DNA of 64,000 nt, taken from assembly GCA_964385615.1 (NCBI GenBank), contig CAYLPP010000013.1, positions 8,130 through 72,129 on the forward strand, in the 5' to 3' direction. Below, piece after piece: positions 55,934-63,971 of this stretch (position 1 is the stretch's first letter; every line of letters begins with the position of its first letter). The stretch comes from an uncultured bacterium. GTDB lineage: Bacteria; Omnitrophota; Omnitrophia; Omnitrophales; Aquincolibacteriaceae. The notes below the pieces were generated by a model that was not told where the DNA came from, ran no database searches, and worked only from the letters and a program-made list of their open reading frames with translations. The translations under genes and the position numbers were made by a program.

Positions 55934-57358
55934 ATGAAAAAGATTTTTTCGGCTCAAGTGGTTGCCTGGGGGGTTCTTGCTCTGGCTGTTTCCCAGCTTC
56001 CGGCGCAGGCCGCGGAAGAAAATGACGCGCGCGTTATTGAAAGAGAAACCGCCGCTGAAAAGCAGGCGGTTGAGACCGCACGGAAGGCTCGTGAAAAAAA
56101 AGTTTTTGAACAAACCGGGAAAATCACGTTTGAACAGATTTTATCCCGTCCCGATGATATTGAGCTGAATTTTCAATTCGCCCAGCAGCAGGTTAAATCT
56201 GAGGACCTGCTCGGCGCGGCCGGCACCCTCGAACGCATTCTGATCACAAATCCCAATCTTCACGAAGTCCGGCTCTTTTACGCGGTAGTGCTTTTCCGTC
56301 TCGATAATTTGATCGATGCCCAAAATGAACTTAAGAAACTGGAAAACGCGCCTCTTCCGGAAAACCTGAAAAGCCAGGTAGGGCTTTATCAGAATGAAAT
56401 TAAAAAAAGAAAGCGTAAAACCCAATTTTCCGTAACTCAAAGTAACGGTTTTGAATTTGATAATAACCGTAACGCGTCGCCGTCGGATAAGCGCGTGCTC
56501 TTCGCGGGAACCCCGGTCAATACCAGCGGAACGTCACGCAGGCGCAAAGACACCAGTTTCCTGAATATTACAACCGTGGATGTCGCCCAGGACCTGGGAA
56601 CTCAAGCCGGGCATCAGCTTTTGGCGTCTTTTACGTATTTCCTTCAGGAGCAGACGCAGGTCGACAGTCTCGACCTTTCTTCCTTTCAATATGAAATCGG
56701 TCCGCTGATTAAAACGAAGTGGGCGGATGTGACCCCGTCTTTTACCGGAAGCCATGTTTTTCTCTCGCGTGAAAATTATTTACGCACACGGGGCGGAAAT
56801 ATTGACGTAAACCGCGCTTTGACCCCGAAATGGAATTTAAACGGGGGTTTTCGTTTTGAGCATCAAGACTATTTGCCTATTGAAGAAAACCAGACGGCTC
56901 GTGACCGCACGGGCTGGGAAGAAACCCTCACCGGCGGAACCAGTTACGCGCTTCCTTTTAATATGAGAGTGGGAACTAACCTTATTTTCGGTCATAAAAA
57001 CGCGCACCGGAAATATGAAACTTACAACCGTTTCGGTTTGAGACCTTATCACACCTGGCTTTTGGGAAAAGGGCAGTTCCTGATTAACTCCGTGGATGTC
57101 AATTTTGACCGCTATAAAGGAATTGATCCCGCGGTAGACGGACTTCACCGGCATGACAGCGCGTTTCGCTATCGTGTGACTTACGGGGCTCCTTTGTCCA
57201 CGCTTCTCATCGGGGTGGGCAAATACCTGCCGTCTTTTATTAAAGACGTGACGGCGACCGTCACTTACGAATATTACCGGTCGCTTTCCAATATCAGCAA
57301 TTTCACGTACACCAATCACAAGATTCAGGCCATGCTGACTAAAAAATGGGAGTTTTAA
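55934..57358 (+). CDS. Outer-membrane protein: signal peptide, TPR-like N-domain and C-terminal beta-barrel ending ...KKWEF (Slam/DUF560-like architecture)
   Basis: The ORF track starts at 55892, but GGGAG is followed by ATG 55934, giving MKKIFSAQVVAWGVLALAVSQLPAQA. A helical TPR-like region (LGAAGTLERILITNPNLHEVRLFYAVVLFRL) precedes alternating amphipathic beta-strands rich in Y/G/N/T and a C-terminal Phe. Confidence 0.55.
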   Translation: MKKIFSAQVVAWGVLALAVSQLPAQAAEENDARVIERETAAEKQAVETARKAREKKVFEQTGKITFEQILSRPDDIELNFQFAQQQVKSEDLLGAAGTLERILITNPNLHEVRLFYAVVLFRLDNLIDAQNELKKLENAPLPENLKSQVGLYQNEIKKRKRKTQFSVTQSNGFEFDNNRNASPSDKRVLFAGTPVNTSGTSRRRKDTSFLNITTVDVAQDLGTQAGHQLLASFTYFLQEQTQVDSLDLSSFQYEIGPLIKTKWADVTPSFTGSHVFLSRENYLRTRGGNIDVNRALTPKWNLNGGFRFEHQDYLPIEENQTARDRTGWEETLTGGTSYALPFNMRVGTNLIFGHKNAHRKYETYNRFGLRPYHTWLLGKGQFLINSVDVNFDRYKGIDPAVDGLHRHDSAFRYRVTYGAPLSTLLIGVGKYLPSFIKDVTATVTYEYYRSLSNISNFTYTNHKIQAMLTKKWEF

Positions 57359-58461
57359 TGAAACTCAAATTCCCGGTTTTAAGCAGTCTGTTTTTCTTCT
57401 TATTCAGCATTCCTGGCTTTTCAGCTCCGGTGACCGCGCCGGTTATTCCCGCGGTTGATGCTTCCAGAGTGGGGGTGATTGCGGCAGTCCGGGGAACCGT
57501 GAAAATGGACCGTAAAGGCCAGGCAGGAGTTATCGTTAAAAGCGGTCAGCCAGTCTATCTGAACGATGAAATTTCGACGGATGATAAAGGTAATCTGCAG
57601 GTGCTTCTTCTGGATGAAACGATTTTTACGATTGGTCCGAACAGCACTATCGTTATCGATCAATTTATTTATGATCCTTCAACGCAAAACGGTCAGATTA
57701 ACGCTAAAGTGGTCAAGGGAGCGTTCCGTTTCGTGACCGGAAAAATAGCGCGCAAAAAACCGGCAGACATGAAAGTGGAATTGCCTGCGGGCAGTATTGG
57801 CGTGCGGGGAACCATTGTCGCGGGCCATGCCGATGGAATGAAGTCCACTGTCGTCTTGCTGGGGCCCGGTTCAAAAAATAACAGCAATAGCCGTATCGGG
57901 CAGATTACGCTGAGTAATGAAGTCGGCGGAGAAAACAAACAAGTGACTGTAACCCGTCCGGGGTACGGTTCTGTTATTGATGGACCCGGTTCAGGGCCTT
58001 CACCCGCGTTTGAGATCCCGGCCGCGGAACTGGACAGTTTAATGGGCAGTTTGGGGCCGACGTCTTCGTCGGAAGATCAGGAAGGTGAAGAAGGCGGAAC
58101 TGGCGGCGGAGGCGATCCGACCCAAAGCGCTGGGCAGGATACGGCTGCTGGCGGAGATTCCGCGGATACCGTGGGAGGTACCGGATCCGACAACCGGATT
58201 ACGGCGCAGGTGTCTGGAGGAACTGTTGAGTACACGCTCAACGAACAGCCTTTCGGCGACAGCGGAGATCCCGCGGTTTTTTTCTTTGATGAAAGTCCCA
58301 GCGGCGGAAATTGTTCCATGTGCGGAAATGCGGATATTACCGTCGCGTTGATCAACAGCGGGGGAGAACCTGCCAGTTACGCCGCGCATAATATTGAATT
58401 TGACAATAATGGCGTGAATACAACCGGCTCCGGAATTTCTGACAAAAGAGATACCGCGTGA
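57358..58461 (+). CDS. Secreted FecR-domain protein, paralog 1 (signal peptide, FecR-like beta domain, Gly/Ser-rich linker, Cys-containing C-terminal domain)
   Basis: GQPVYLNDEISTDDKGNLQVLLLDETIFTIGPNSTIVID...VKGAFRFVTGK...MKVELPAGSIGVRGTIVAG matches the FecR (PF04773-type) pattern. The start has a TAATG overlap with the OMP gene. Confidence 0.6.
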   Translation: MKLKFPVLSSLFFFLFSIPGFSAPVTAPVIPAVDASRVGVIAAVRGTVKMDRKGQAGVIVKSGQPVYLNDEISTDDKGNLQVLLLDETIFTIGPNSTIVIDQFIYDPSTQNGQINAKVVKGAFRFVTGKIARKKPADMKVELPAGSIGVRGTIVAGHADGMKSTVVLLGPGSKNNSNSRIGQITLSNEVGGENKQVTVTRPGYGSVIDGPGSGPSPAFEIPAAELDSLMGSLGPTSSSEDQEGEEGGTGGGGDPTQSAGQDTAAGGDSADTVGGTGSDNRITAQVSGGTVEYTLNEQPFGDSGDPAVFFFDESPSGGNCSMCGNADITVALINSGGEPASYAAHNIEFDNNGVNTTGSGISDKRDTA

Positions 58462-59795
58462 ATTTCTATAAAAAGATCGCAGTATTTGTTCTTTGCGTTT
58501 CGGTTTTACCTCCCGCGTATTCCGCGCCTGCTCCAGGGCTTTTGAATGCTCCCGTGATTTCCTCAGATCTTTCCAAAATTGGCGTCGTGGCCGCCGTTAC
58601 GGGTTCCGTTAAAATTGAGAGCCAAGGCTTGGCCGGGCGGATGGCTCAAAGCGGGGAACCCGTTTACATTGGGGATACGGTTTCCACGGACTCAGAAGGC
58701 ACTCTGCAGATTCTGCTTCTTGATGAAACGGTTTTTACCATCGGTCCCAACAGCGCGATCATTATTGATAAATTTATTTATGACCCGGCTTCAGAGTCAG
58801 GACAGGTCAATGCCAAGGTCGTGAAAGGGGTTTTTCGTTTTGTGACCGGAAAAATCGCGCGCAAGAAACCTTCCGATATGAAAGTTGATCTGCCGGCCGG
58901 AAGTATCGGTGTCCGCGGAACGATTGTGGCCGGCGAAGTGGCGGGAAACAAATCCACGGTTATTCTGCTCGGCCCCGGAGCCCGGACCAACACAATTCAT
59001 CGGATCGGCCAGATTATTGTCAGTAATCAGGTTGGAGGTCAGGAGAAGCAGGTCACAGTTACACGTCCGGGTTTCGGCACGGTGATTGAAGGCAAAAACA
59101 CTGAACCTTTGGTGCCGTTTCTCATTCCTGAACAGGATCTTCAAAAAATTTCAAACGCGCTTGAAACTAAGACTTCCATCCGAAATGCGAAGCCCGGCCC
59201 TGAGGGTAAGGGGGCTGATCCTTCACGCCAGTCAGGCCAGGACCGCGCCAGAGCGCGTGAGCCTTTGCGCAATATTGACCGCACCGGGAAATTTCTGCAG
59301 AAGCTTGGCCGTGAATCAGATAAAGCCTCCCAGCTGGCGGTTTTGGGAGACAAGGTTCAAGACGGAATCTCACGGCTTCAGGAGTTAAGACGCATTCAAG
59401 ACGGCGTTTTTATGTATAGCCAGACAGGAACGACGCTGCTTAAGAATGGCGCTGACGCCGGAGATACTTACGATTTTCAGTATGAAATTAATTTTGGAAA
59501 CCGCACAGTGGGGGGAGCCGCGAATTCACATATCACGGCGACAACGGCCGGAGGAACCGCGACTTATCTTTTAGGGCAGAGGTCTTTTGACTTGGGAATT
59601 GGCGACGCGGAGTTTAAATATCCCACGGCGCCCAAAAGCGGCGGCTCTTGCACCGGCTGCAGTTCGACGGCTGATATTAATGTCAGGATTCAAAACCGGA
59701 ATGGTGTGATCGGGCAGACGACTCAGAACGACATTTCTTTTACGAACTCGTCAGACACTTATACCGGCCAAGGCGAAACCGGTCCCCGCAGCTAA
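58458..59795 (+). CDS. Secreted FecR-domain protein, paralog 2 (tandem duplicate of the previous gene with a longer divergent middle region)
   Basis: GEPVYIGDTVSTDSEGTLQILLLDETVFTIGPNSAIIIDKFIYDP...VKGVFRFVTGKIARKKPSDMKVDLPAGSIGVRGTIVAG. The C-terminal GGSCTGCSSTADINV region is homologous to GGNCSMCGNADITV in paralog 1. The start has a GTGA overlap with paralog 1. Confidence 0.6.
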   Translation: MNFYKKIAVFVLCVSVLPPAYSAPAPGLLNAPVISSDLSKIGVVAAVTGSVKIESQGLAGRMAQSGEPVYIGDTVSTDSEGTLQILLLDETVFTIGPNSAIIIDKFIYDPASESGQVNAKVVKGVFRFVTGKIARKKPSDMKVDLPAGSIGVRGTIVAGEVAGNKSTVILLGPGARTNTIHRIGQIIVSNQVGGQEKQVTVTRPGFGTVIEGKNTEPLVPFLIPEQDLQKISNALETKTSIRNAKPGPEGKGADPSRQSGQDRARAREPLRNIDRTGKFLQKLGRESDKASQLAVLGDKVQDGISRLQELRRIQDGVFMYSQTGTTLLKNGADAGDTYDFQYEINFGNRTVGGAANSHITATTAGGTATYLLGQRSFDLGIGDAEFKYPTAPKSGGSCTGCSSTADINVRIQNRNGVIGQTTQNDISFTNSSDTYTGQGETGPRS

Positions 59796-59797
59796 GG

Positions 59798-62002
59798 TTA
59801 CTTTGAATCGGCAATGAAAACTCCGTTCCAGCCTTGCGGAGGCGGAAAAGTCTGGTAGGACCGGGTTCTTTCCCGGAAAGTGCTCTTGAGTATGTCCGCC
59901 TTCAGGTAAGTAAAATCCCCTTTAAAAATATCTAAAACCGCTTCGGCTTCCTGCCAATGGCGTCCGCGGTATTTATCAAGGAATTTCAAAAAGAGAGAGA
60001 TAGCTTCCTGTTCCGTTCCGGGCGCGCCCGCTAACGCCAGCGCCCGCACCGGCTTGGTCTTTCCTTTAACCTGGATTAAATCCACTTCCACGAATTCAAA
60101 CTGATTTTTCACGGCCAGCGCCGTGCTTTCGCTGACTAAAATACTAGCGCCGTAAAATCCTGAAAGCCCTTGCAGGCGGGAAGCCAGATTGACTTCGTCA
60201 CCCAGCACGGAATAATCAAACCTCTGATCGGAACCCATGTTGCCGACACAGCATTTACCGGTGTTAATGCCAATGGCCAGTTCAATGGGCTGGAAACTTT
60301 TTGCCTGGTTCTTGGCTTCTTCCGCCATTTCAAGGTTCCAGAGTTTTAGGTGGTCCTGCATGGCCGCGGCCGCGCGGCAGGCGTTGACCGCGTGATCTTT
60401 ATCTTCCAGGGGAGCGTTCCAGAAAGCCATAATGCAATCGCCCATGTATTTATCGATTGTTCCTTTATTTTTCAAAATAATATCCGTCATGGGCGTCAGG
60501 AAACGATTCATGAAATGGGTCAGTTCCTGGGCGCTGTAACGTTCGGAAAAAGTCGTGAAACCGCGGATGTCGGCGAAAAGCACCGTCATTTCTTTCATTT
60601 CACCGCCGAGTTTCAGCTGGTCCGGCTTGTCTTCCAGCTGTTTGACGATTTCCGGCGCGAGGTAACGGCTGAAAGCTCCGCGGATATGACGGCGTTCATT
60701 TTCGGAGCGAAGATAATTGAGCAGGGAAGCCGCGAGATAAATGATCAGCGAAGCCAGAGACGGCACGACGGGGTCCAGAAGCAGGCGCCACGCAGTGAAC
60801 GCGTGCCATGAAAAGATAAAAGCTCCCGCGATAAATAAAATCGAAAGAACCGCGCAGGCAAGCGCACCCAGGCGGGGCAGAAGGAAGACCAGGATTAGGC
60901 CTAGCAAGAAAACGTAAACGGTTTCGGCGCCGGATGCCCAGTCAGGGCGGGAAAGAAAGTTTTGCTCCATGACTTGTTCAGCAAGCTGAACATGGATTTC
61001 CGTGCCAGCGCTGACGGGGTTCAGGGGGGTAGCGCGAAGATCTTTGAGCCCGCCCGCGCTGGACCCAATGAAAATAATTTTACCCTCCACCATTTTAGGG
61101 TCGAAATCTTTTTCAAGGACTTTCCAGGCCGGAATAAACCGCTCCGCTTTATGCCCGCTGTCGTACAGCCAGATTTTCCCCGTTCCATCGGTAGGAATGA
61201 TCATGTTTCCGGTCTTGATGGAAAGAATCCCGGTTTTTTCTCCGAACCCTGTTTCACCGCTGGCGCCTGAGCTTTTGAGAATCATGCCCGAAGCGCCTTG
61301 AGCGACGCGCAGAGATTCCATGACCAGCGAGGGAAAAAGCTTGTCTTGAATGCGGAACACAACCGGAACCCGTCTGATGATGCTGTCACGCTCCGCCAAA
61401 AAATTAAAACTTCCGTTACCGGCCGCGCTTTTTTCAATATTGGGAAGATTGACAACCGCGCCCTTGAAAGACGGCAGGAAATTTTTAGGATCATCTCCGG
61501 AATAAGCGAAGCCGGTTTTAAGTGCCGGAAGAACTCCGTTTTCTCCGGAAGTCAGAATAAAACCGGTGACAGCGGGCTTGCCTTCAAGGGCTTTGGCTAG
61601 ATTCGGGTCTTGGTCGGGCTGGGAAGCAAGACACTTCTTACCTTTTCCCGGGGCCTCCGGCAATAAGTGGGCAACCTGCCCGGGGCTGGTACGGTCGGGT
61701 TCCGCGAAGACAATATCAAAAACGACCGCGGCCGCGCCCGAATCCGTAAGCTTTGTAAAAAGCCGGGCAACCAGCGTGCGAGGCCAGGGCCATTGGCCCA
61801 GCTTGGTCAGACTCGCGTCATCAATATCCACCAGCGCGGCCGGTGTTTCCGGATTATAAACGCGGGGTTTGAGACGCTGAAATTGATCGAAGACTTTGAG
61901 AGAGAAACTTTCGAGCGGCTGAGCCAGAATGATTTTTAAAAAGACGATTCCGATTAGAACTAAAAGAGGAATCAGAGAGCCGGCTTTTTTAGTCAGGTTC
62001 AT
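59798..62002 (-). CDS. CHASE2 sensor domain fused to a class III adenylate/guanylate cyclase
   Basis: N-terminal TM plus the QWPWPR CHASE2 hallmark, further TM helices, then a cyclase domain (FADIRGFTTFSE...YMGDCIMAFWNAP...GINTGKCCVGNMGS...VLGDEVNLASRLQ). Confidence 0.8.
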   Translation of the reverse strand: MNLTKKAGSLIPLLVLIGIVFLKIILAQPLESFSLKVFDQFQRLKPRVYNPETPAALVDIDDASLTKLGQWPWPRTLVARLFTKLTDSGAAAVVFDIVFAEPDRTSPGQVAHLLPEAPGKGKKCLASQPDQDPNLAKALEGKPAVTGFILTSGENGVLPALKTGFAYSGDDPKNFLPSFKGAVVNLPNIEKSAAGNGSFNFLAERDSIIRRVPVVFRIQDKLFPSLVMESLRVAQGASGMILKSSGASGETGFGEKTGILSIKTGNMIIPTDGTGKIWLYDSGHKAERFIPAWKVLEKDFDPKMVEGKIIFIGSSAGGLKDLRATPLNPVSAGTEIHVQLAEQVMEQNFLSRPDWASGAETVYVFLLGLILVFLLPRLGALACAVLSILFIAGAFIFSWHAFTAWRLLLDPVVPSLASLIIYLAASLLNYLRSENERRHIRGAFSRYLAPEIVKQLEDKPDQLKLGGEMKEMTVLFADIRGFTTFSERYSAQELTHFMNRFLTPMTDIILKNKGTIDKYMGDCIMAFWNAPLEDKDHAVNACRAAAAMQDHLKLWNLEMAEEAKNQAKSFQPIELAIGINTGKCCVGNMGSDQRFDYSVLGDEVNLASRLQGLSGFYGASILVSESTALAVKNQFEFVEVDLIQVKGKTKPVRALALAGAPGTEQEAISLFLKFLDKYRGRHWQEAEAVLDIFKGDFTYLKADILKSTFRERTRSYQTFPPPQGWNGVFIADSK

Positions 62003-63264
62003 GGAATCCGGACGGCTAAAAGGGTTGTGTCGTCGTGCTGAGGCGCGTCTTTGGCGAAATTTTGCAGATCCGCGAGAACCGTTTCAGCGTAATCAGAAGC
62101 GCTCGCGCGGGGAGAAGATAGAATTTTCTTCAGACGGTCAATGCCGTATTCCTGCGATGAAGGGTTGCGGGCTTCAATAACACCATCGGTGTAAACAAAC
62201 AGGCTGTCTCCTTCCGCGCAGCTGAAGGAACCTTTCTGGTACTGGCTTCCATCGGCCAGGCCGACCGGCACCCCGCCAATATTTTCGAATTCCTCCAGAG
62301 TTCCGCCCGAGTTTTTTCTTAAAACCGGGTGATGCCCGGCGGAAACGTATTCGATTTTCTTTTCACGGTTATCGACGATCAAATAAAGAAGCGTGACAAA
62401 CATTCCAAACGGGCTGTTCTTGGCCAGGATGGCGTTGAGTTTCGTGACCAGCTCCGCGGGGCAGGCGCATTTCTGCACCAGGAAACGGTACTCCGACATG
62501 GTTCTTACCATATAAAGAGCCGCCGGCACGCCTTTGCCTGAAACATCGCCGATCACAATCCCGGTCCGGTGCTCGTCGATTTTGACGACATCATAAAAAT
62601 CTCCGCCTACGTCCCGGGCCGGCAGACTGCGCGCGGCCAATTCCACCGCGAATTGATTGCCGGAAAGGTCGGGTAAGAAATTCTGCTGAATTTCATGCGC
62701 GATTTTTAGTTCCTGACGGGTCTTTTCCTGGCGGAGCATTTCACCGTGCATACGAGCGTTTTCAACCGCGAGCGCGGCTTGATCGGCAAAAGCCTGAAAC
62801 AGCGAAAGATCATCGGCGTCGAATTCCTTGCGCCCTTTCGGGTTAATGGCTTCCAGAATGCCGATAATTTTGCCTTTCACGTGCATAGGCACACACAAGA
62901 TCGCCTGGCTTTTAAAGCCGGTCGACTGGTCGAAGCGCTTGGCGAAGCGTTTGTCTTTTTGCGTGTTGTTGACGATCAGAGCCTTGCGTGTTTTGGCGAC
63001 GGTTCCCGCGATGCCTTCACCGACATCGACTTGAAAATTTTCTTTGAGGGTGTTGGCTTTACAGCCCAGAGCGACTTTAAAAACAAGGTGATTGCCGGAA
63101 GGGTCGAGAAGCATGAGCGAAGCCGCGTGAGTGTTCACGACTTCCGCTGCGGTGTTCATAATAACGCCAAGAAGCTCCTCGAGGTTCAGAGTTGAGTTGA
63201 TCTTGGCGTTCAGGGCCAGGACTTTTTCCAGGTTCTGAATTTTCCTTTTTGAGGAGACGGTCAT
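61999..63264 (-). CDS. GAF domain plus PP2C-type (SpoIIE/RsbU-like) serine phosphatase (ORF track extends to 63432; start reassigned to the ATG in the ATGA overlap at 63264)
   Basis: A GAF region (ILCVPMHVKGKIIGILEAINP) and PP2C motifs (ARDVGGDFYDV...GIVIGDVSGKGVPAALYM...YTDGVIEA). Confidence 0.75.
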   Translation of the reverse strand: MTVSSKRKIQNLEKVLALNAKINSTLNLEELLGVIMNTAAEVVNTHAASLMLLDPSGNHLVFKVALGCKANTLKENFQVDVGEGIAGTVAKTRKALIVNNTQKDKRFAKRFDQSTGFKSQAILCVPMHVKGKIIGILEAINPKGRKEFDADDLSLFQAFADQAALAVENARMHGEMLRQEKTRQELKIAHEIQQNFLPDLSGNQFAVELAARSLPARDVGGDFYDVVKIDEHRTGIVIGDVSGKGVPAALYMVRTMSEYRFLVQKCACPAELVTKLNAILAKNSPFGMFVTLLYLIVDNREKKIEYVSAGHHPVLRKNSGGTLEEFENIGGVPVGLADGSQYQKGSFSCAEGDSLFVYTDGVIEARNPSSQEYGIDRLKKILSSPRASASDYAETVLADLQNFAKDAPQHDDTTLLAVRIP

Positions 63265-63971
63265 AATTTCACCCAGAAACCAAACACCCATCCCCAAAGC
63301 GCGGCATAAAAATAATTCAGAAAGAAATCCAGGCCGTTTTTCATGCGAGGAGATGTCAGACGAAAAGGCGCAGGTACAAATGAAAACGCGAGTCCGGCCA
63401 AAGATGGAGAAAGAAAACAAAAAGAGATCCACGGCCGTTCGATTAATCCCCAGCTCATTTCAAAGCTGGTGATGAAGTGATCAGGCCGGGAATTTTTGAA
63501 GAAAGTTTTACGCACGGAGTGCAGGGAGTAGCTGGCTTTAAAAGTAACGCTGATGAATAAAATGGCCAGCAAAGTCAGGTCCTGGTTCAGATAGATTTTG
63601 TCGACGGCCGGAATCCCGAAAGTTCTGGGTTGGGATTGCGCTTCGGGCAGAAAAAAGACGGCGGACAGAAATAGTAAATGAAAAATCTGGTCGACGGTGA
63701 AATACCAGAAAGTGTTTTTGGGGTCTTTGGCCTGCAGGGAGTATTTGATCTGGTCCTGAAGATAGTGAATCACTGTAATAGCGCAGACGAAAACGACAAC
63801 CCGGATATCGGTGATATAAGGGAACAGCAAAAGCAGGGTGACCAGGCCGTGTATCAGGGCGTGAAAGAAGTGGCCCAGCCAACTGCGGATTTTAAGCTGA
63901 TACAGTTCCTCAAACTGGAGGATGAAATCGGCAACCATGTGCGCCAGAATCAGTTTCAGGAATAAAAACAT
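63261..63971 (-). CDS. Polytopic membrane protein, DUF3307-like (HxxxDFxLQ motif)
   Basis: MFLFLKLILAHMVADFILQFEE... and a multi-TM profile; it is the first gene of the minus-strand operon, with 4-nt overlaps downstream. Confidence 0.45.
   Translation of the reverse strand: MFLFLKLILAHMVADFILQFEELYQLKIRSWLGHFFHALIHGLVTLLLLFPYITDIRVVVFVCAITVIHYLQDQIKYSLQAKDPKNTFWYFTVDQIFHLLFLSAVFFLPEAQSQPRTFGIPAVDKIYLNQDLTLLAILFISVTFKASYSLHSVRKTFFKNSRPDHFITSFEMSWGLIERPWISFCFLSPSLAGLAFSFVPAPFRLTSPRMKNGLDFFLNYFYAALWGWVFGFWVKL

Follow-up and report, generated by a model that had tools for sequence, protein, structure and literature searches.

A DUF560-related outer-membrane protein gene, FecR-barrel genes and a CHASE2 cyclase gene at one Omnitrophota locus: a candidate envelope-spanning sensory module

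Genes of the locus

The gene under study occupies positions 55934 to 57358 on the forward strand of a 64,000-nucleotide stretch of DNA from an uncultured member of the Omnitrophota, and it is this whole stretch that we call the window. Its open reading frame (55892/55934-57358), read from the start at 55934, encodes 474 residues with 100% identity to the protein deposited at NCBI (P0001). The N-terminus of this outer-membrane protein (OMP), MKKIFSAQVVAWGVLALAVSQLPAQA|AEEN, resembles a Sec signal peptide and holds the single hydrophobic segment of the protein (residues 4-22, by hydropathy), so 474 residues is the length of the precursor and the mature protein should comprise about 448, fewer than the approximately 475 that an earlier note on this DNA had given for the mature form. 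In the AF2 model (pLDDT 86.8), helices at residues 30-160 are followed by beta strands at 163-473, and DSSP assigns to the barrel 14 long strands across 163-473 along with a short first-loop hairpin (187-196); the chain ends in ...LTKKWEF. Together with matches to TPR_19 in 40 of 46 homologues, these results bear out the N-terminal TPR-like helical region and the C-terminal barrel with terminal Phe described in that note, as well as its expectation of 14 strands. A word index returned 179 matches, and no fewer than 534 representative clusters belong to the family at E≤1e-30; the gene is both real and conserved. The features of the locus are as follows.

55934-57358, forward strand: OMP precursor, 474 aa, with signal peptide, TPR region, DUF560/SlipAM-like barrel and terminal Phe
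55934-56011, forward strand: OMP signal peptide (aa 1-26)
~56021-56413, forward strand: OMP periplasmic helical/TPR region (aa ~30-160)
56420-57355, forward strand: OMP 14-strand DUF560/SlipAM-like barrel ending in Phe (aa 163-474)
57358-58461, forward strand: FecR-domain secreted protein 1, 367 aa counted from the ATG at 57358 (ORF listed from 57346)
~57460-58044, forward strand: FecR domain of protein 1, followed by a Gly/Asp-rich linker
~58165-58452, forward strand: C-terminal barrel of protein 1, N-terminally truncated (matches positions 45-144 of the 149 in the barrel profile)
58458-59795, forward strand: FecR-domain secreted protein 2, 445 aa, with signal peptide
58569-59156, forward strand: FecR domain of protein 2 (aa 38-233), followed on the same strand by a disordered linker with an SGQD motif and a helix (aa 234-304)
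59370-59792, forward strand: complete 8-strand Slam-cargo-like barrel of protein 2 (aa 305-445)
59798-62002, reverse strand: CHASE2 sensor with class III adenylate/guanylate cyclase, inner membrane, 734 aa (CHASE2 5.6e-54, Guanylate_cyc 2.3e-26)
61999-63432, reverse strand: GAF and SpoIIE/PP2C phosphatase, in the same direction as the cyclase gene and overlapping its end
63261-63971, reverse strand: DUF3307 membrane protein, which accompanies the GAF-PP2C gene in Omnitrophota loci

The placement of the OMP gene immediately upstream of secreted FecR-domain proteins, also reported in the earlier note, is correct: the two genes that follow both encode a FecR domain (PF04773, E ~1e-10) behind a signal peptide. 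Stop and start codons overlap as TAATG (57356-57360) between the OMP gene and the first FecR gene and as GTGA (58458-58461) between the first FecR gene and the second, and the two FecR genes are translationally coupled to the OMP gene. The database protein for FecR protein 1 is P0140 (367 aa, same contig). Hydropathy and inspection of the sequences give both proteins cleavable-type signal peptides (FSA|P and YSA|P) that lack a lipobox Cys at the cleavage site; this peptide is the sole hydrophobic segment, and there is no transmembrane helix. A reading of the two as anti-sigma regulators was rejected because they contain neither a transmembrane nor an anti-sigma portion and no gene for an ECF sigma factor lies nearby; a search of ORFs and Pfam matches within 50-64 kb found neither a sigma factor gene nor a TonB-dependent receptor gene. 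The cyclase gene is convergent with the FecR genes, and the hydropathy of its product shows a hydrophobic segment at the N-terminus and about three more in the central part, flanking a predicted periplasmic CHASE2 domain.

The arrangement was compared across 75 related loci from Omnitrophota, Elusimicrobia and Alpha- and Deltaproteobacteria. A FecR gene lies no more than 400 bp downstream of the OMP gene in 73 of the 75, and the first of the FecR genes carries a detected barrel in 53 of 69 loci, with none detected in the other 16. A CHASE2 cyclase gene is adjacent in 40 of the 45 loci with enough flanking sequence, the remaining 5 being without a nearby cyclase. The trio of OMP, FecR and CHASE2-cyclase genes is conserved across at least four phyla, and the cultivable Thalassospira carries all three (loci L068-L078). 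The GAF-PP2C gene keeps its position in about 18 Omnitrophota loci; its tie to the module is weaker and restricted to that phylum.

Family relations of the two barrels

Scanned directly against Pfam and NCBIfam, the window OMP gave sub-threshold matches only. Its match to SlipAM/DUF560 (PF04575) reaches 12.7 bits (E 0.09, residues 254-370) against a Pfam gathering threshold of 22 bits, so the argument for a DUF560 identity must be made through its homologues. SlipAM/DUF560 is matched by 24 of 46 homologues at E≤0.01 (best 6e-9), and about half of the homologues that are 40-75% identical to the window protein score above threshold, often across nearly the whole profile; those above it reach 26-38 bits and are 39-75% identical to the window protein. 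When 20 homologues were scored one by one, 13 exceeded the threshold: all 10 of a selected set (26-38 bits, reaching up to positions 5-279 of the 288 in the profile) and 3 of 10 unselected distant ones (29-38 bits, up to 5-288 of 288). The homologue P0119 is named 'DUF560 domain-containing protein' by NCBI. DUF2860 is also matched by 21 of the 46 homologues, more weakly than DUF560 in every case. TPR_Slam (PF24575) gives E 0.1 for the window OMP and matches 11 of the 46 homologues (best 3.8e-5, 24.5 bits), all below its threshold of 35.2 bits. A Foldseek search of the OMP barrel against the PDB found generic barrels, the best being the 14-strand OmpG and CymA (TM 0.56-0.67), and a search of PDB sequences with the OMP-family profile gave nothing but noise and no Slam structure. 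Judged from these profile matches, the OMP is probably a divergent member of the DUF560/Slam family of type 11 secretion systems (T11SS). The DUF560 assignment suggested in the earlier note therefore stands at the level of the homologues, and the window OMP taken by itself falls short of it.

The C-terminal domain of FecR protein 2 is modelled as 8 strands (AF2, pLDDT >93). A profile of this domain, searched against 177,635 PDB sequences, matched nothing but hemophilin (E 0.0097), LbpB (0.046) and two TbpB entries. Foldseek with the model of protein 2 found fHbp, including its isolated C-barrel 4ayn (TM 0.59), TbpB and LbpB; siderocalin is also among the fold matches. The top NCBIfam family for the barrel is 'Slam-dependent surface lipoprotein' (slam_lipo, 4 of 40 members, best 5e-5), and Pfam FHBP_C is matched by 2 of 54 members, while the Pfam TbpB barrel family is absent from the Pfam matches of the protein 2 family up to an E of 1. 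With a broader profile of 50 domains that included tandem repeats, the Slam-cargo matches in the PDB were lost and weak AbpX/TasA matches only were returned, so the sequence link depends on the alignment. Up-and-down barrels of 8 strands are, moreover, a common fold. We regard the FecR C-terminal domain as an 8-strand barrel that is probably of the type that marks Slam/T11SS cargo, with a sequence link that is marginal.

Versions of the protein in Elusimicrobia combine a FecR domain with 9-16 tandem barrels in 1,686-3,297 residues. At the other extreme, short FecR-only paralogues without a barrel lie between the long FecR gene and the cyclase gene in many loci. We also considered whether the 8-strand domain could be a transmembrane barrel like OmpA or PagP and rejected this, since it is rich in Gly, Thr and Ser, ends in ...GPRS rather than in an aromatic residue, and can be repeated in tandem as many as 16 times. 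The earlier note does not mention this probable cargo-type barrel, a type-11 signature, in the FecR proteins.

Possible functions of the conserved trio

CHASE2 is a widespread extracytoplasmic sensor domain for which we know of no ligand or activation mechanism, and to our knowledge direct contact between FecR and CHASE2 has never been demonstrated. The canonical FecR/PupR domain acts in the periplasm. The only functional clue to CHASE2 so far comes from Sinorhizobium meliloti, where the FecR-containing outer-membrane protein NsrA is reported to be needed for activation of the CHASE2 cyclase CyaK by an external protein signal. NsrA (1,190 aa) joins FecR, TPR and barrel in one polypeptide encoded directly upstream of cyaK, and its FecR domain is homologous to that of the window family (hhalign 92%). 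Elsewhere, a LysM-FecR gene of Burkholderia shares an operon with a CHASE2 histidine kinase (PMC5192318), and a cluster in Campylobacterota holds a CHASE2 cyclase, a FecR 'outer membrane protein', a TPR protein and a phosphodiesterase (PMC9239204). By analogy, FecR-CHASE2 coupling in these unrelated systems suggests that the FecR domain works in the periplasm, and if it does, export of the FecR proteins as free cargo probably accounts for only part of what the system does. Our literature search found no paper that joins DUF560 with FecR, or CHASE2 with DUF560, T11SS or Slam. The earlier reading of a Slam-like OMP with its probable cargo is partly upheld, by the family-level DUF560 relation, the 14 modelled strands and the probable cargo-type barrel described here, but it missed the conserved CHASE2 cyclase partner.

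On balance we lean slightly towards the view that the locus encodes an envelope-spanning sensory module composed of the Slam-like OMP, one or more FecR-linker-barrel proteins and the CHASE2 cyclase. Computation has established which domains the proteins contain, how the operon is built and that the trio is conserved. Building on these results, we infer that the Slam-like OMP would recognise the cargo-type barrel of the FecR protein and move it to, or dock it at, the cell surface, and that the FecR domain would contact the periplasmic CHASE2 domain and set the activity of the cyclase. An external cue unable to cross the outer membrane could in this way be converted into cAMP or cGMP, and in Omnitrophota the GAF-PP2C phosphatase encoded next to the cyclase, a possible cyclic-nucleotide reader, may sense that signal.

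For the topology of such a sensor we prefer, with low confidence, a tether, in which the folded FecR domain would stay in the periplasm like a LapA retention module, the linker would thread the OMP barrel and the 8-strand barrel or barrels would lie outside. A T11SS-like barrel would then retain its substrate threaded across the outer membrane, with the outer barrels serving as a surface antenna and FecR as a periplasmic plug touching CHASE2. We put this forward as a tentative and somewhat doubtful arrangement; known T11SS cargo is exported whole, and we know of no partially translocated cargo. If true, the tether would amount to a three-protein envelope-spanning receptor, would explain how CHASE2 perceives non-diffusible external cues, and would apply to Proteobacteria as much as to the uncultivated Omnitrophota and Elusimicrobia.

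It is rather unlikely, in our estimation, that a classical type 11 secretion pair is all that the locus encodes, with the whole FecR-barrel protein exported like hemophilin, to the cell surface or into the medium, and FecR serving outside the cell in binding or as an effector. The cyclase would in that case be merely co-regulated, or would detect the secreted protein, alone or loaded with ligand, from outside. The DUF560 relation of the OMP family and the cargo-type barrel of the FecR proteins fit such a pair, as do signal peptides without a lipobox, which soluble T11SS cargo also has, and multi-barrel T11SS cargo has already been described. The location of the FecR domain fits it less well: the canonical FecR/PupR domain is periplasmic, and in NsrA the FecR domain precedes a TPR arm, which a C-terminal barrel follows, an order that puts FecR in the periplasm too, provided that the TPR arm lies there. 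Furthermore, FecR is a constant partner of CHASE2 even where there is no outer-membrane exporter, as with the LysM-FecR protein of Burkholderia, and in many loci short barrel-less paralogues are found between the long FecR gene and the cyclase gene.

A purely periplasmic co-sensor seems to us less probable again. Here the 8-strand barrel would be a lipocalin-like ligand binder and the OMP a ligand channel or a scaffold holding the FecR protein with its TPR arm, with no translocation at all. The presence of siderocalin among the fold matches of FecR protein 2, the channels OmpG and CymA as the best structural matches of the OMP barrel and the weak sequence link of the 8-strand domain to Slam cargo are all compatible with this. 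The OMP barrel family, on the other hand, is DUF560 and not a porin family, every significant match of the 8-strand domain, by sequence or by profile, is to Slam cargo, and the giants with 9-16 barrels would be difficult to fit into the periplasm.

That the OMP is an exopolysaccharide-type exporter (TPR plus barrel, like PgaA, BcsC or PelB) or a generic porin, functionally unrelated to the FecR genes, is so improbable that we reject it: Foldseek matches to PelBC and BcsC, weak NCBIfam matches to BcsC, PgaA and PEP-CTERM outer-membrane proteins and the fact that PgaA homologues fall into PF04575 count in its favour, but the barrel has 14 strands instead of 16, no polysaccharide synthase genes were found nearby among the window ORFs and their Pfam matches, the NCBIfam matches include none to a barrel-specific family, and the FecR gene is nearly invariantly coupled to the OMP gene across phyla.

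Under the envelope-sensor reading that we favour, the window locus, along with the at least 534 representative clusters of the OMP family, would tie CHASE2 signalling to type 11 secretion. Should that connection hold, FecR-barrel proteins, some of which carry as many as 16 tandem barrels, would constitute a new cargo class, and T11SS-like machinery, so far described in Proteobacteria with nutrient-capture and adhesin cargo, would extend to Omnitrophota and Elusimicrobia. It would also provide a concrete, testable model for how signals enter CHASE2 sensors.

Comparison with known systems

The Slam/T11SS systems that we compared are Neisseria Slam1/2 with TbpB, LbpB and fHbp, the HsmA-HphA and HrpB-HrpC hemophilin systems, and NilB-NilC. 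They share with the window OMP a TPR-type region at the N-terminus, predicted to be periplasmic in the window protein, and a DUF560 or DUF560-like barrel of 14 strands, and in both cases the OMP gene lies beside the gene for a Sec-exported protein whose N-terminal domain varies and whose C-terminus forms an 8-strand barrel; T11SS cargo may be non-lipidated, and multi-barrel cargo architectures exist. The differences are considerable. The sequences are highly divergent, with the window OMP itself below the Pfam threshold, and the family is present in Omnitrophota and Elusimicrobia, whereas T11SS are described from Proteobacteria. A FecR N-terminal domain lies outside the approximately ten described T11SS cargo architectures, and in the window neither TonB nor TonB-dependent-receptor genes are neighbours; a conserved CHASE2 cyclase gene is found in their stead.

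With FecA-FecR-FecI and PupB-PupR the window shares the FecR fold (PupR C-terminal domain 6ovk, TM 0.50, rmsd 3.2) and a logic that runs from an outer-membrane protein through a FecR domain to an inner-membrane or cytoplasmic output. Unlike in those systems, its FecR proteins lack both a transmembrane helix and an anti-sigma domain, genes for an ECF sigma factor or a TonB-dependent transducer are absent from the surroundings, and the output is a cyclase. LapA/MpIBP adhesins resemble the window proteins in their layout, in which a Gly-rich linker joins a small N-terminal beta-domain to repeated domains of extracellular type, from one to many in number. The N-terminal FecR subdomain superimposes on the MpIBP/LapA retention module 5ix9 with a TM of 0.75 and 33% identity over 61 columns, and the NCBIfam model retention_LapA (NF033682) scores 20-23.5 bits on the FecR proteins (E 5e-4 to 5e-5), below its 50-bit cut-off. 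Those adhesins are secreted by a type 1 system (ABC/TolC-like) and tethered via its outer-membrane pore, whereas the window would rely on Sec and a DUF560 barrel, through which we infer an equivalent tethering.

The Campylobacterota and Burkholderia pairs, like the window, place a secreted FecR-domain protein beside a CHASE2 sensor, with a TPR protein in some; they were reported without a link to DUF560/T11SS or a Slam-cargo barrel, and their output and accessory (LysM) domains differ. The FecR domain is the sole element common to all CHASE2-linked systems. NsrA and the window alike bring FecR, TPR and an outer-membrane barrel together next to a CHASE2 cyclase gene, the window dividing them between two proteins, and the NsrA pathway of S. 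meliloti, which responds to a plant signal, also includes the cyclases CyaD1/D2. The NsrA barrel is TonB-dependent-receptor-like and not DUF560, no similarity to the window OMP barrel was detected, and NsrA lacks the 8-strand cargo-type barrel of FecR protein 2. With non-homologous barrels, NsrA was rejected as an orthologue and is kept as a functional analogue of the window module.

The outer-membrane protein and its barrel family

Three genes on the forward strand of the window form the core of the system considered here:

55934-57358, +, ORF (ORF call) for a 474-aa outer-membrane protein (OMP)
57358-58461, +, FecR1, 367 aa
58458-59795, +, FecR2, 445 aa

The OMP gene is real because its product has 179 word-index matches and a family of 534 representative clusters at E<=1e-30 in a full HMMER scan; the closest named relatives come from Candidatus Omnitrophota MAGs, which makes an origin of the window in this phylum very probable, and the sequence is identical to the NCBI-deposited protein P0001. 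A typical signal peptide (MKKIFSAQVVAWGVLALAVSQLPAQA, followed by AEEN), which is the sole hydrophobic segment, targets the protein to Sec, and its last residues are ...LTKKWEF. In the AlphaFold2 model (46 homologues, mean pLDDT 86.8), helices span residues 30-160 and residues 163-473 form 14 long beta strands, while residues 187-196 add a short hairpin within the first loop. The earlier note had described TPR-like helices, a barrel with a terminal Phe and a position upstream of secreted proteins, all of which are borne out by the model, the C-terminus and the neighbours, and the strand count that it proposed as a check comes to 14. Its mature length of about 475 aa needs correction, as 474 aa is the length of the precursor, signal peptide included.

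The same note had proposed a DUF560/Slam barrel, and by Pfam this stands for about half of the homologues of the OMP but not for the OMP itself, which gives sub-threshold matches to TPR_19 (E 0.017), SlipAM/PF04575 (E 0.09, 12.7 bits against a curated threshold of 22 bits) and TPR_Slam/PF24575 (E 0.1). Among 46 full-length homologues (39-75% identical to the OMP), 24 match SlipAM at E<=0.01 (best 6e-9) and 11 match TPR_Slam. Ten homologues picked for carrying a precomputed SlipAM annotation all score above threshold (26-38 bits), some over positions 5-279 or 7-281 of the 288-position profile. In a second, unselected set of ten among the lowest-scoring family members listed by exhaustive search, three exceed the threshold (one spanning 5-288), one lies just below it, and six have no SlipAM match at E<=0.001. 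The only other barrel family repeatedly matched by homologues, DUF2860, is weaker than SlipAM every time, and NCBI names one family member a "DUF560 domain-containing protein". An unrelated polysaccharide exporter or porin is highly improbable.

The FecR proteins and their eight-stranded domain

Overlapping stop and start codons couple the OMP, FecR1 and FecR2 genes in an operon (TAATG, 57356-57360; GTGA, 58458-58461). In both FecR products a signal peptide precedes the FecR domain (PF04773, E about 1e-10), in keeping with the earlier description of the downstream genes as secreted FecR-domain proteins. In the FecR2 model (54 homologues, pLDDT 85), residues 40-210 form the FecR beta-domain; then come a disordered linker, a helix (271-296) and, at the C-terminus, eight strands (317-440, pLDDT >93) that had escaped the earlier note.

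A profile of this 8-strand domain, built from 40 family members, gave four matches at E<=10 among 177,635 distinct PDB sequences: hemophilin (E 0.0097), lactoferrin-binding protein B (LbpB, 0.046) and two TbpB entries, with the alignments centred on the motif Y..G...F.(I/V)DFG.(R/K)T.GG. When the whole FecR2 model was searched with Foldseek, the FecR part matched PupR and a Bacteroidetes anti-sigma factor, and the remainder a long series of fHbp, TbpB and LbpB entries, including the isolated fHbp C-terminal barrel 4ayn (TM 0.59). The NCBIfam family that the largest number of domain members match is "Slam-dependent surface lipoprotein" (4/40, best 5e-5), and two members of the FecR2 family touch Pfam FHBP_C. 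The PDB matches to Slam cargo disappeared with a broader profile made up largely of tandem-repeat copies, and Pfam scans of the FecR proteins gave no match to Pfam's TbpB barrel family. Cargo of the type 11 secretion (Slam) system (T11SS) is published as a variable N-terminal domain followed by a C-terminal eight-stranded barrel, with or without lipidation and with several barrels in some cases; the FecR proteins fit this description, on lines of evidence that converge and are each weak.

The FecR1 copy of the domain is without the helix and first two strands, and FecR1 could be a paralogue in decay, or else a variant unfit to be handled like the full-length one. A motif, [ST]xx[SA]GQ[DG], is conserved amid the otherwise disordered linker of FecR-barrel proteins, in 30 of 66 long ones versus 0 of 40 proteins in which no barrel was detected. 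The sites are as follows:

58120-58150, +, linker motif of FecR1, from the alignment
58165-58452, +, partial 8-strand domain of FecR1, profile positions 45-144 of 149
59220-59250, +, linker motif of FecR2, aa about 256-265, from the alignment

Short FecR-only paralogues carry other conserved tails (...AAQD... or ...AAQGGMLTPPQP), and both the motif and the tails might serve to dock onto the TPR arm.

Conservation of the locus and its CHASE2 cyclase

Convergent with the FecR genes lies a cyclase gene, followed by two others:

59798-62002, -, CHASE2 cyclase (CHASE2 5.6e-54, cyclase 2.3e-26)
61999-63432, -, GAF and SpoIIE/PP2C phosphatase
63261-63971, -, DUF3307 membrane protein

The cyclase has Lys and Asp (DKYMGD, FDYSVLGDEVNLASR) at the class III positions that confer adenine specificity. 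The GAF-PP2C and DUF3307 pair recurs at about 18 Omnitrophota loci, and one might speculate that the GAF domain reads a cNMP.

A one-genome-per-species scan, analysed with our own ORF calling and HMMs, yielded 80 loci from Omnitrophota, Elusimicrobia, Alphaproteobacteria (including cultured Thalassospira) and Deltaproteobacteria, across which the trio of OMP, FecR protein and cyclase is conserved. A FecR gene follows the OMP gene within 400 bp on the same strand at 73 of the 75 loci with enough flank, and at 53 of 69 loci the 8-strand domain is present on this first FecR gene. At 40 of 45 loci there is a CHASE2 adenylate/guanylate cyclase within 10 kb, on the downstream side in Omnitrophota and Proteobacteria, and upstream with divergent orientation in Elusimicrobia. 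One or two extra FecR-only paralogues (about 300 aa) separate the long FecR gene from the cyclase at many Omnitrophota loci. At three Elusimicrobia loci, the gene directly downstream of the OMP gene encodes a giant protein with one N-terminal FecR domain and then tandem 8-strand domains:

L066:11486-21379, 3,297 aa, 16 barrel copies
L072:6222-12410, 2,062 aa, 11 barrel copies
L076:11391-16451, 1,686 aa, 9 barrel copies

In Thalassospira (L068-L071, L074, L075, L078), the OMP, one 475-aa FecR protein and the CHASE2 cyclase are consecutive on one strand, and the C-terminal domain of the FecR protein matches the barrel profile weakly (hhalign E 4e-4, first strands). In one Omnitrophota genome (contig CAYSSX010000004.1, L026 and L027), about 60 kb separate two OMP-FecR-barrel pairs, the first with CHASE2 cyclase, GAF-PP2C and DUF3307 and the second without a cyclase within 10 kb.

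A possible outer arm of CHASE2 signalling and its known counterparts

The TPR arm of the OMP would lie in the periplasm after insertion. The OMP probably recognises the FecR protein by its cargo-type barrel, in the way of Slam with its substrates. The OMP-FecR module would form the outer arm of CHASE2 signalling, a role that seems somewhat likely. More tentatively, the FecR domain might remain periplasmic, with the linker passing through the OMP barrel and one or more 8-strand domains displayed outside, an arrangement suggested by a likeness to retention modules, the Gly-rich linker after the FecR domain and the beads-on-a-string giants. The first FecR half (FecR2 58569-58800, aa about 40-115) resembles the retention module of the MpIBP/LapA adhesins (5ix9, TM 0.75, 33% identity over 61 columns, Foldseek), which are type-1-secreted, and NCBIfam retention_LapA matches the FecR domain at 5e-5, under the cut-off. 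This half also weakly matches the Leptospira FecR-domain proteins Lsa33 and LipL45 (surface adhesin and lipoprotein by NCBIfam name).

Secretion of the entire FecR protein as in hemophilin, with a cyclase that is merely co-regulated, is a rather doubtful reading. A wholly periplasmic complex with a channel-like OMP is unlikely. Both differ from the outer-arm model in topology only.

For that model, systems elsewhere are instructive. FecR-domain proteins go with CHASE2 sensors in systems that share nothing else. Burkholderia and Pseudomonas have a LysM-FecR protein alongside a CHASE2 histidine kinase (PMC5192318). On Ensifer plasmid NZ_CP070354.1, a 104-aa TPR protein and a FecR protein of 220 aa (L082:6770-7743) are encoded divergently from a CHASE2 cyclase, with an NHLP-type bacteriocin export system and a cyclic-nucleotide-binding protein as neighbours, and represent a minimal, barrel-less form of the set. 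Most can be learned from nsrA on S. meliloti pSymB. This gene lies immediately upstream of cyaK, which encodes a CHASE2 cyclase, and its 1,190-aa product combines a FecR domain (E 1.8e-15) and TPR repeats with a barrel at the C-terminus. The FecR domains of NsrA and the window proteins are homologous (hhalign 92%), whereas the NsrA barrel is TonB-dependent-receptor-like with no detected similarity to the OMP barrel, so the set of FecR, TPR, outer-membrane barrel and CHASE2 cyclase has come together two or more times, with barrels of different kinds. The FecR domain of NsrA precedes the TPR arm and barrel, and if that arm is periplasmic, as it is in other TPR-barrel proteins, then so is the FecR domain. 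From this domain order and the recurring FecR-CHASE2 sets, we infer that periplasmic coupling to CHASE2 is probably the conserved role of the FecR domain. An external protein signal reportedly needs NsrA in order to activate CyaK and CyaD1/D2 (PMC7529298, PMC13001267).

The T11SS literature describes ten Proteobacterial clusters, with cargo analysed for two only; in what we examined of it, FecR, CHASE2 and cyclases are nowhere mentioned, and a literature search found neither DUF560 together with FecR nor CHASE2 together with DUF560, T11SS or Slam. The mechanism of CHASE2 sensor input now becomes directly testable, for example in Thalassospira. The signalling side already has prior art in the CHASE2-FecR-TPR cluster of Campylobacterota (PMC9239204) and in NsrA; what is new is the identification of the TPR-barrel partner as DUF560-type and of the FecR partner as the bearer of a Slam-cargo-type barrel, and the reach of the system into Omnitrophota and Elusimicrobia.
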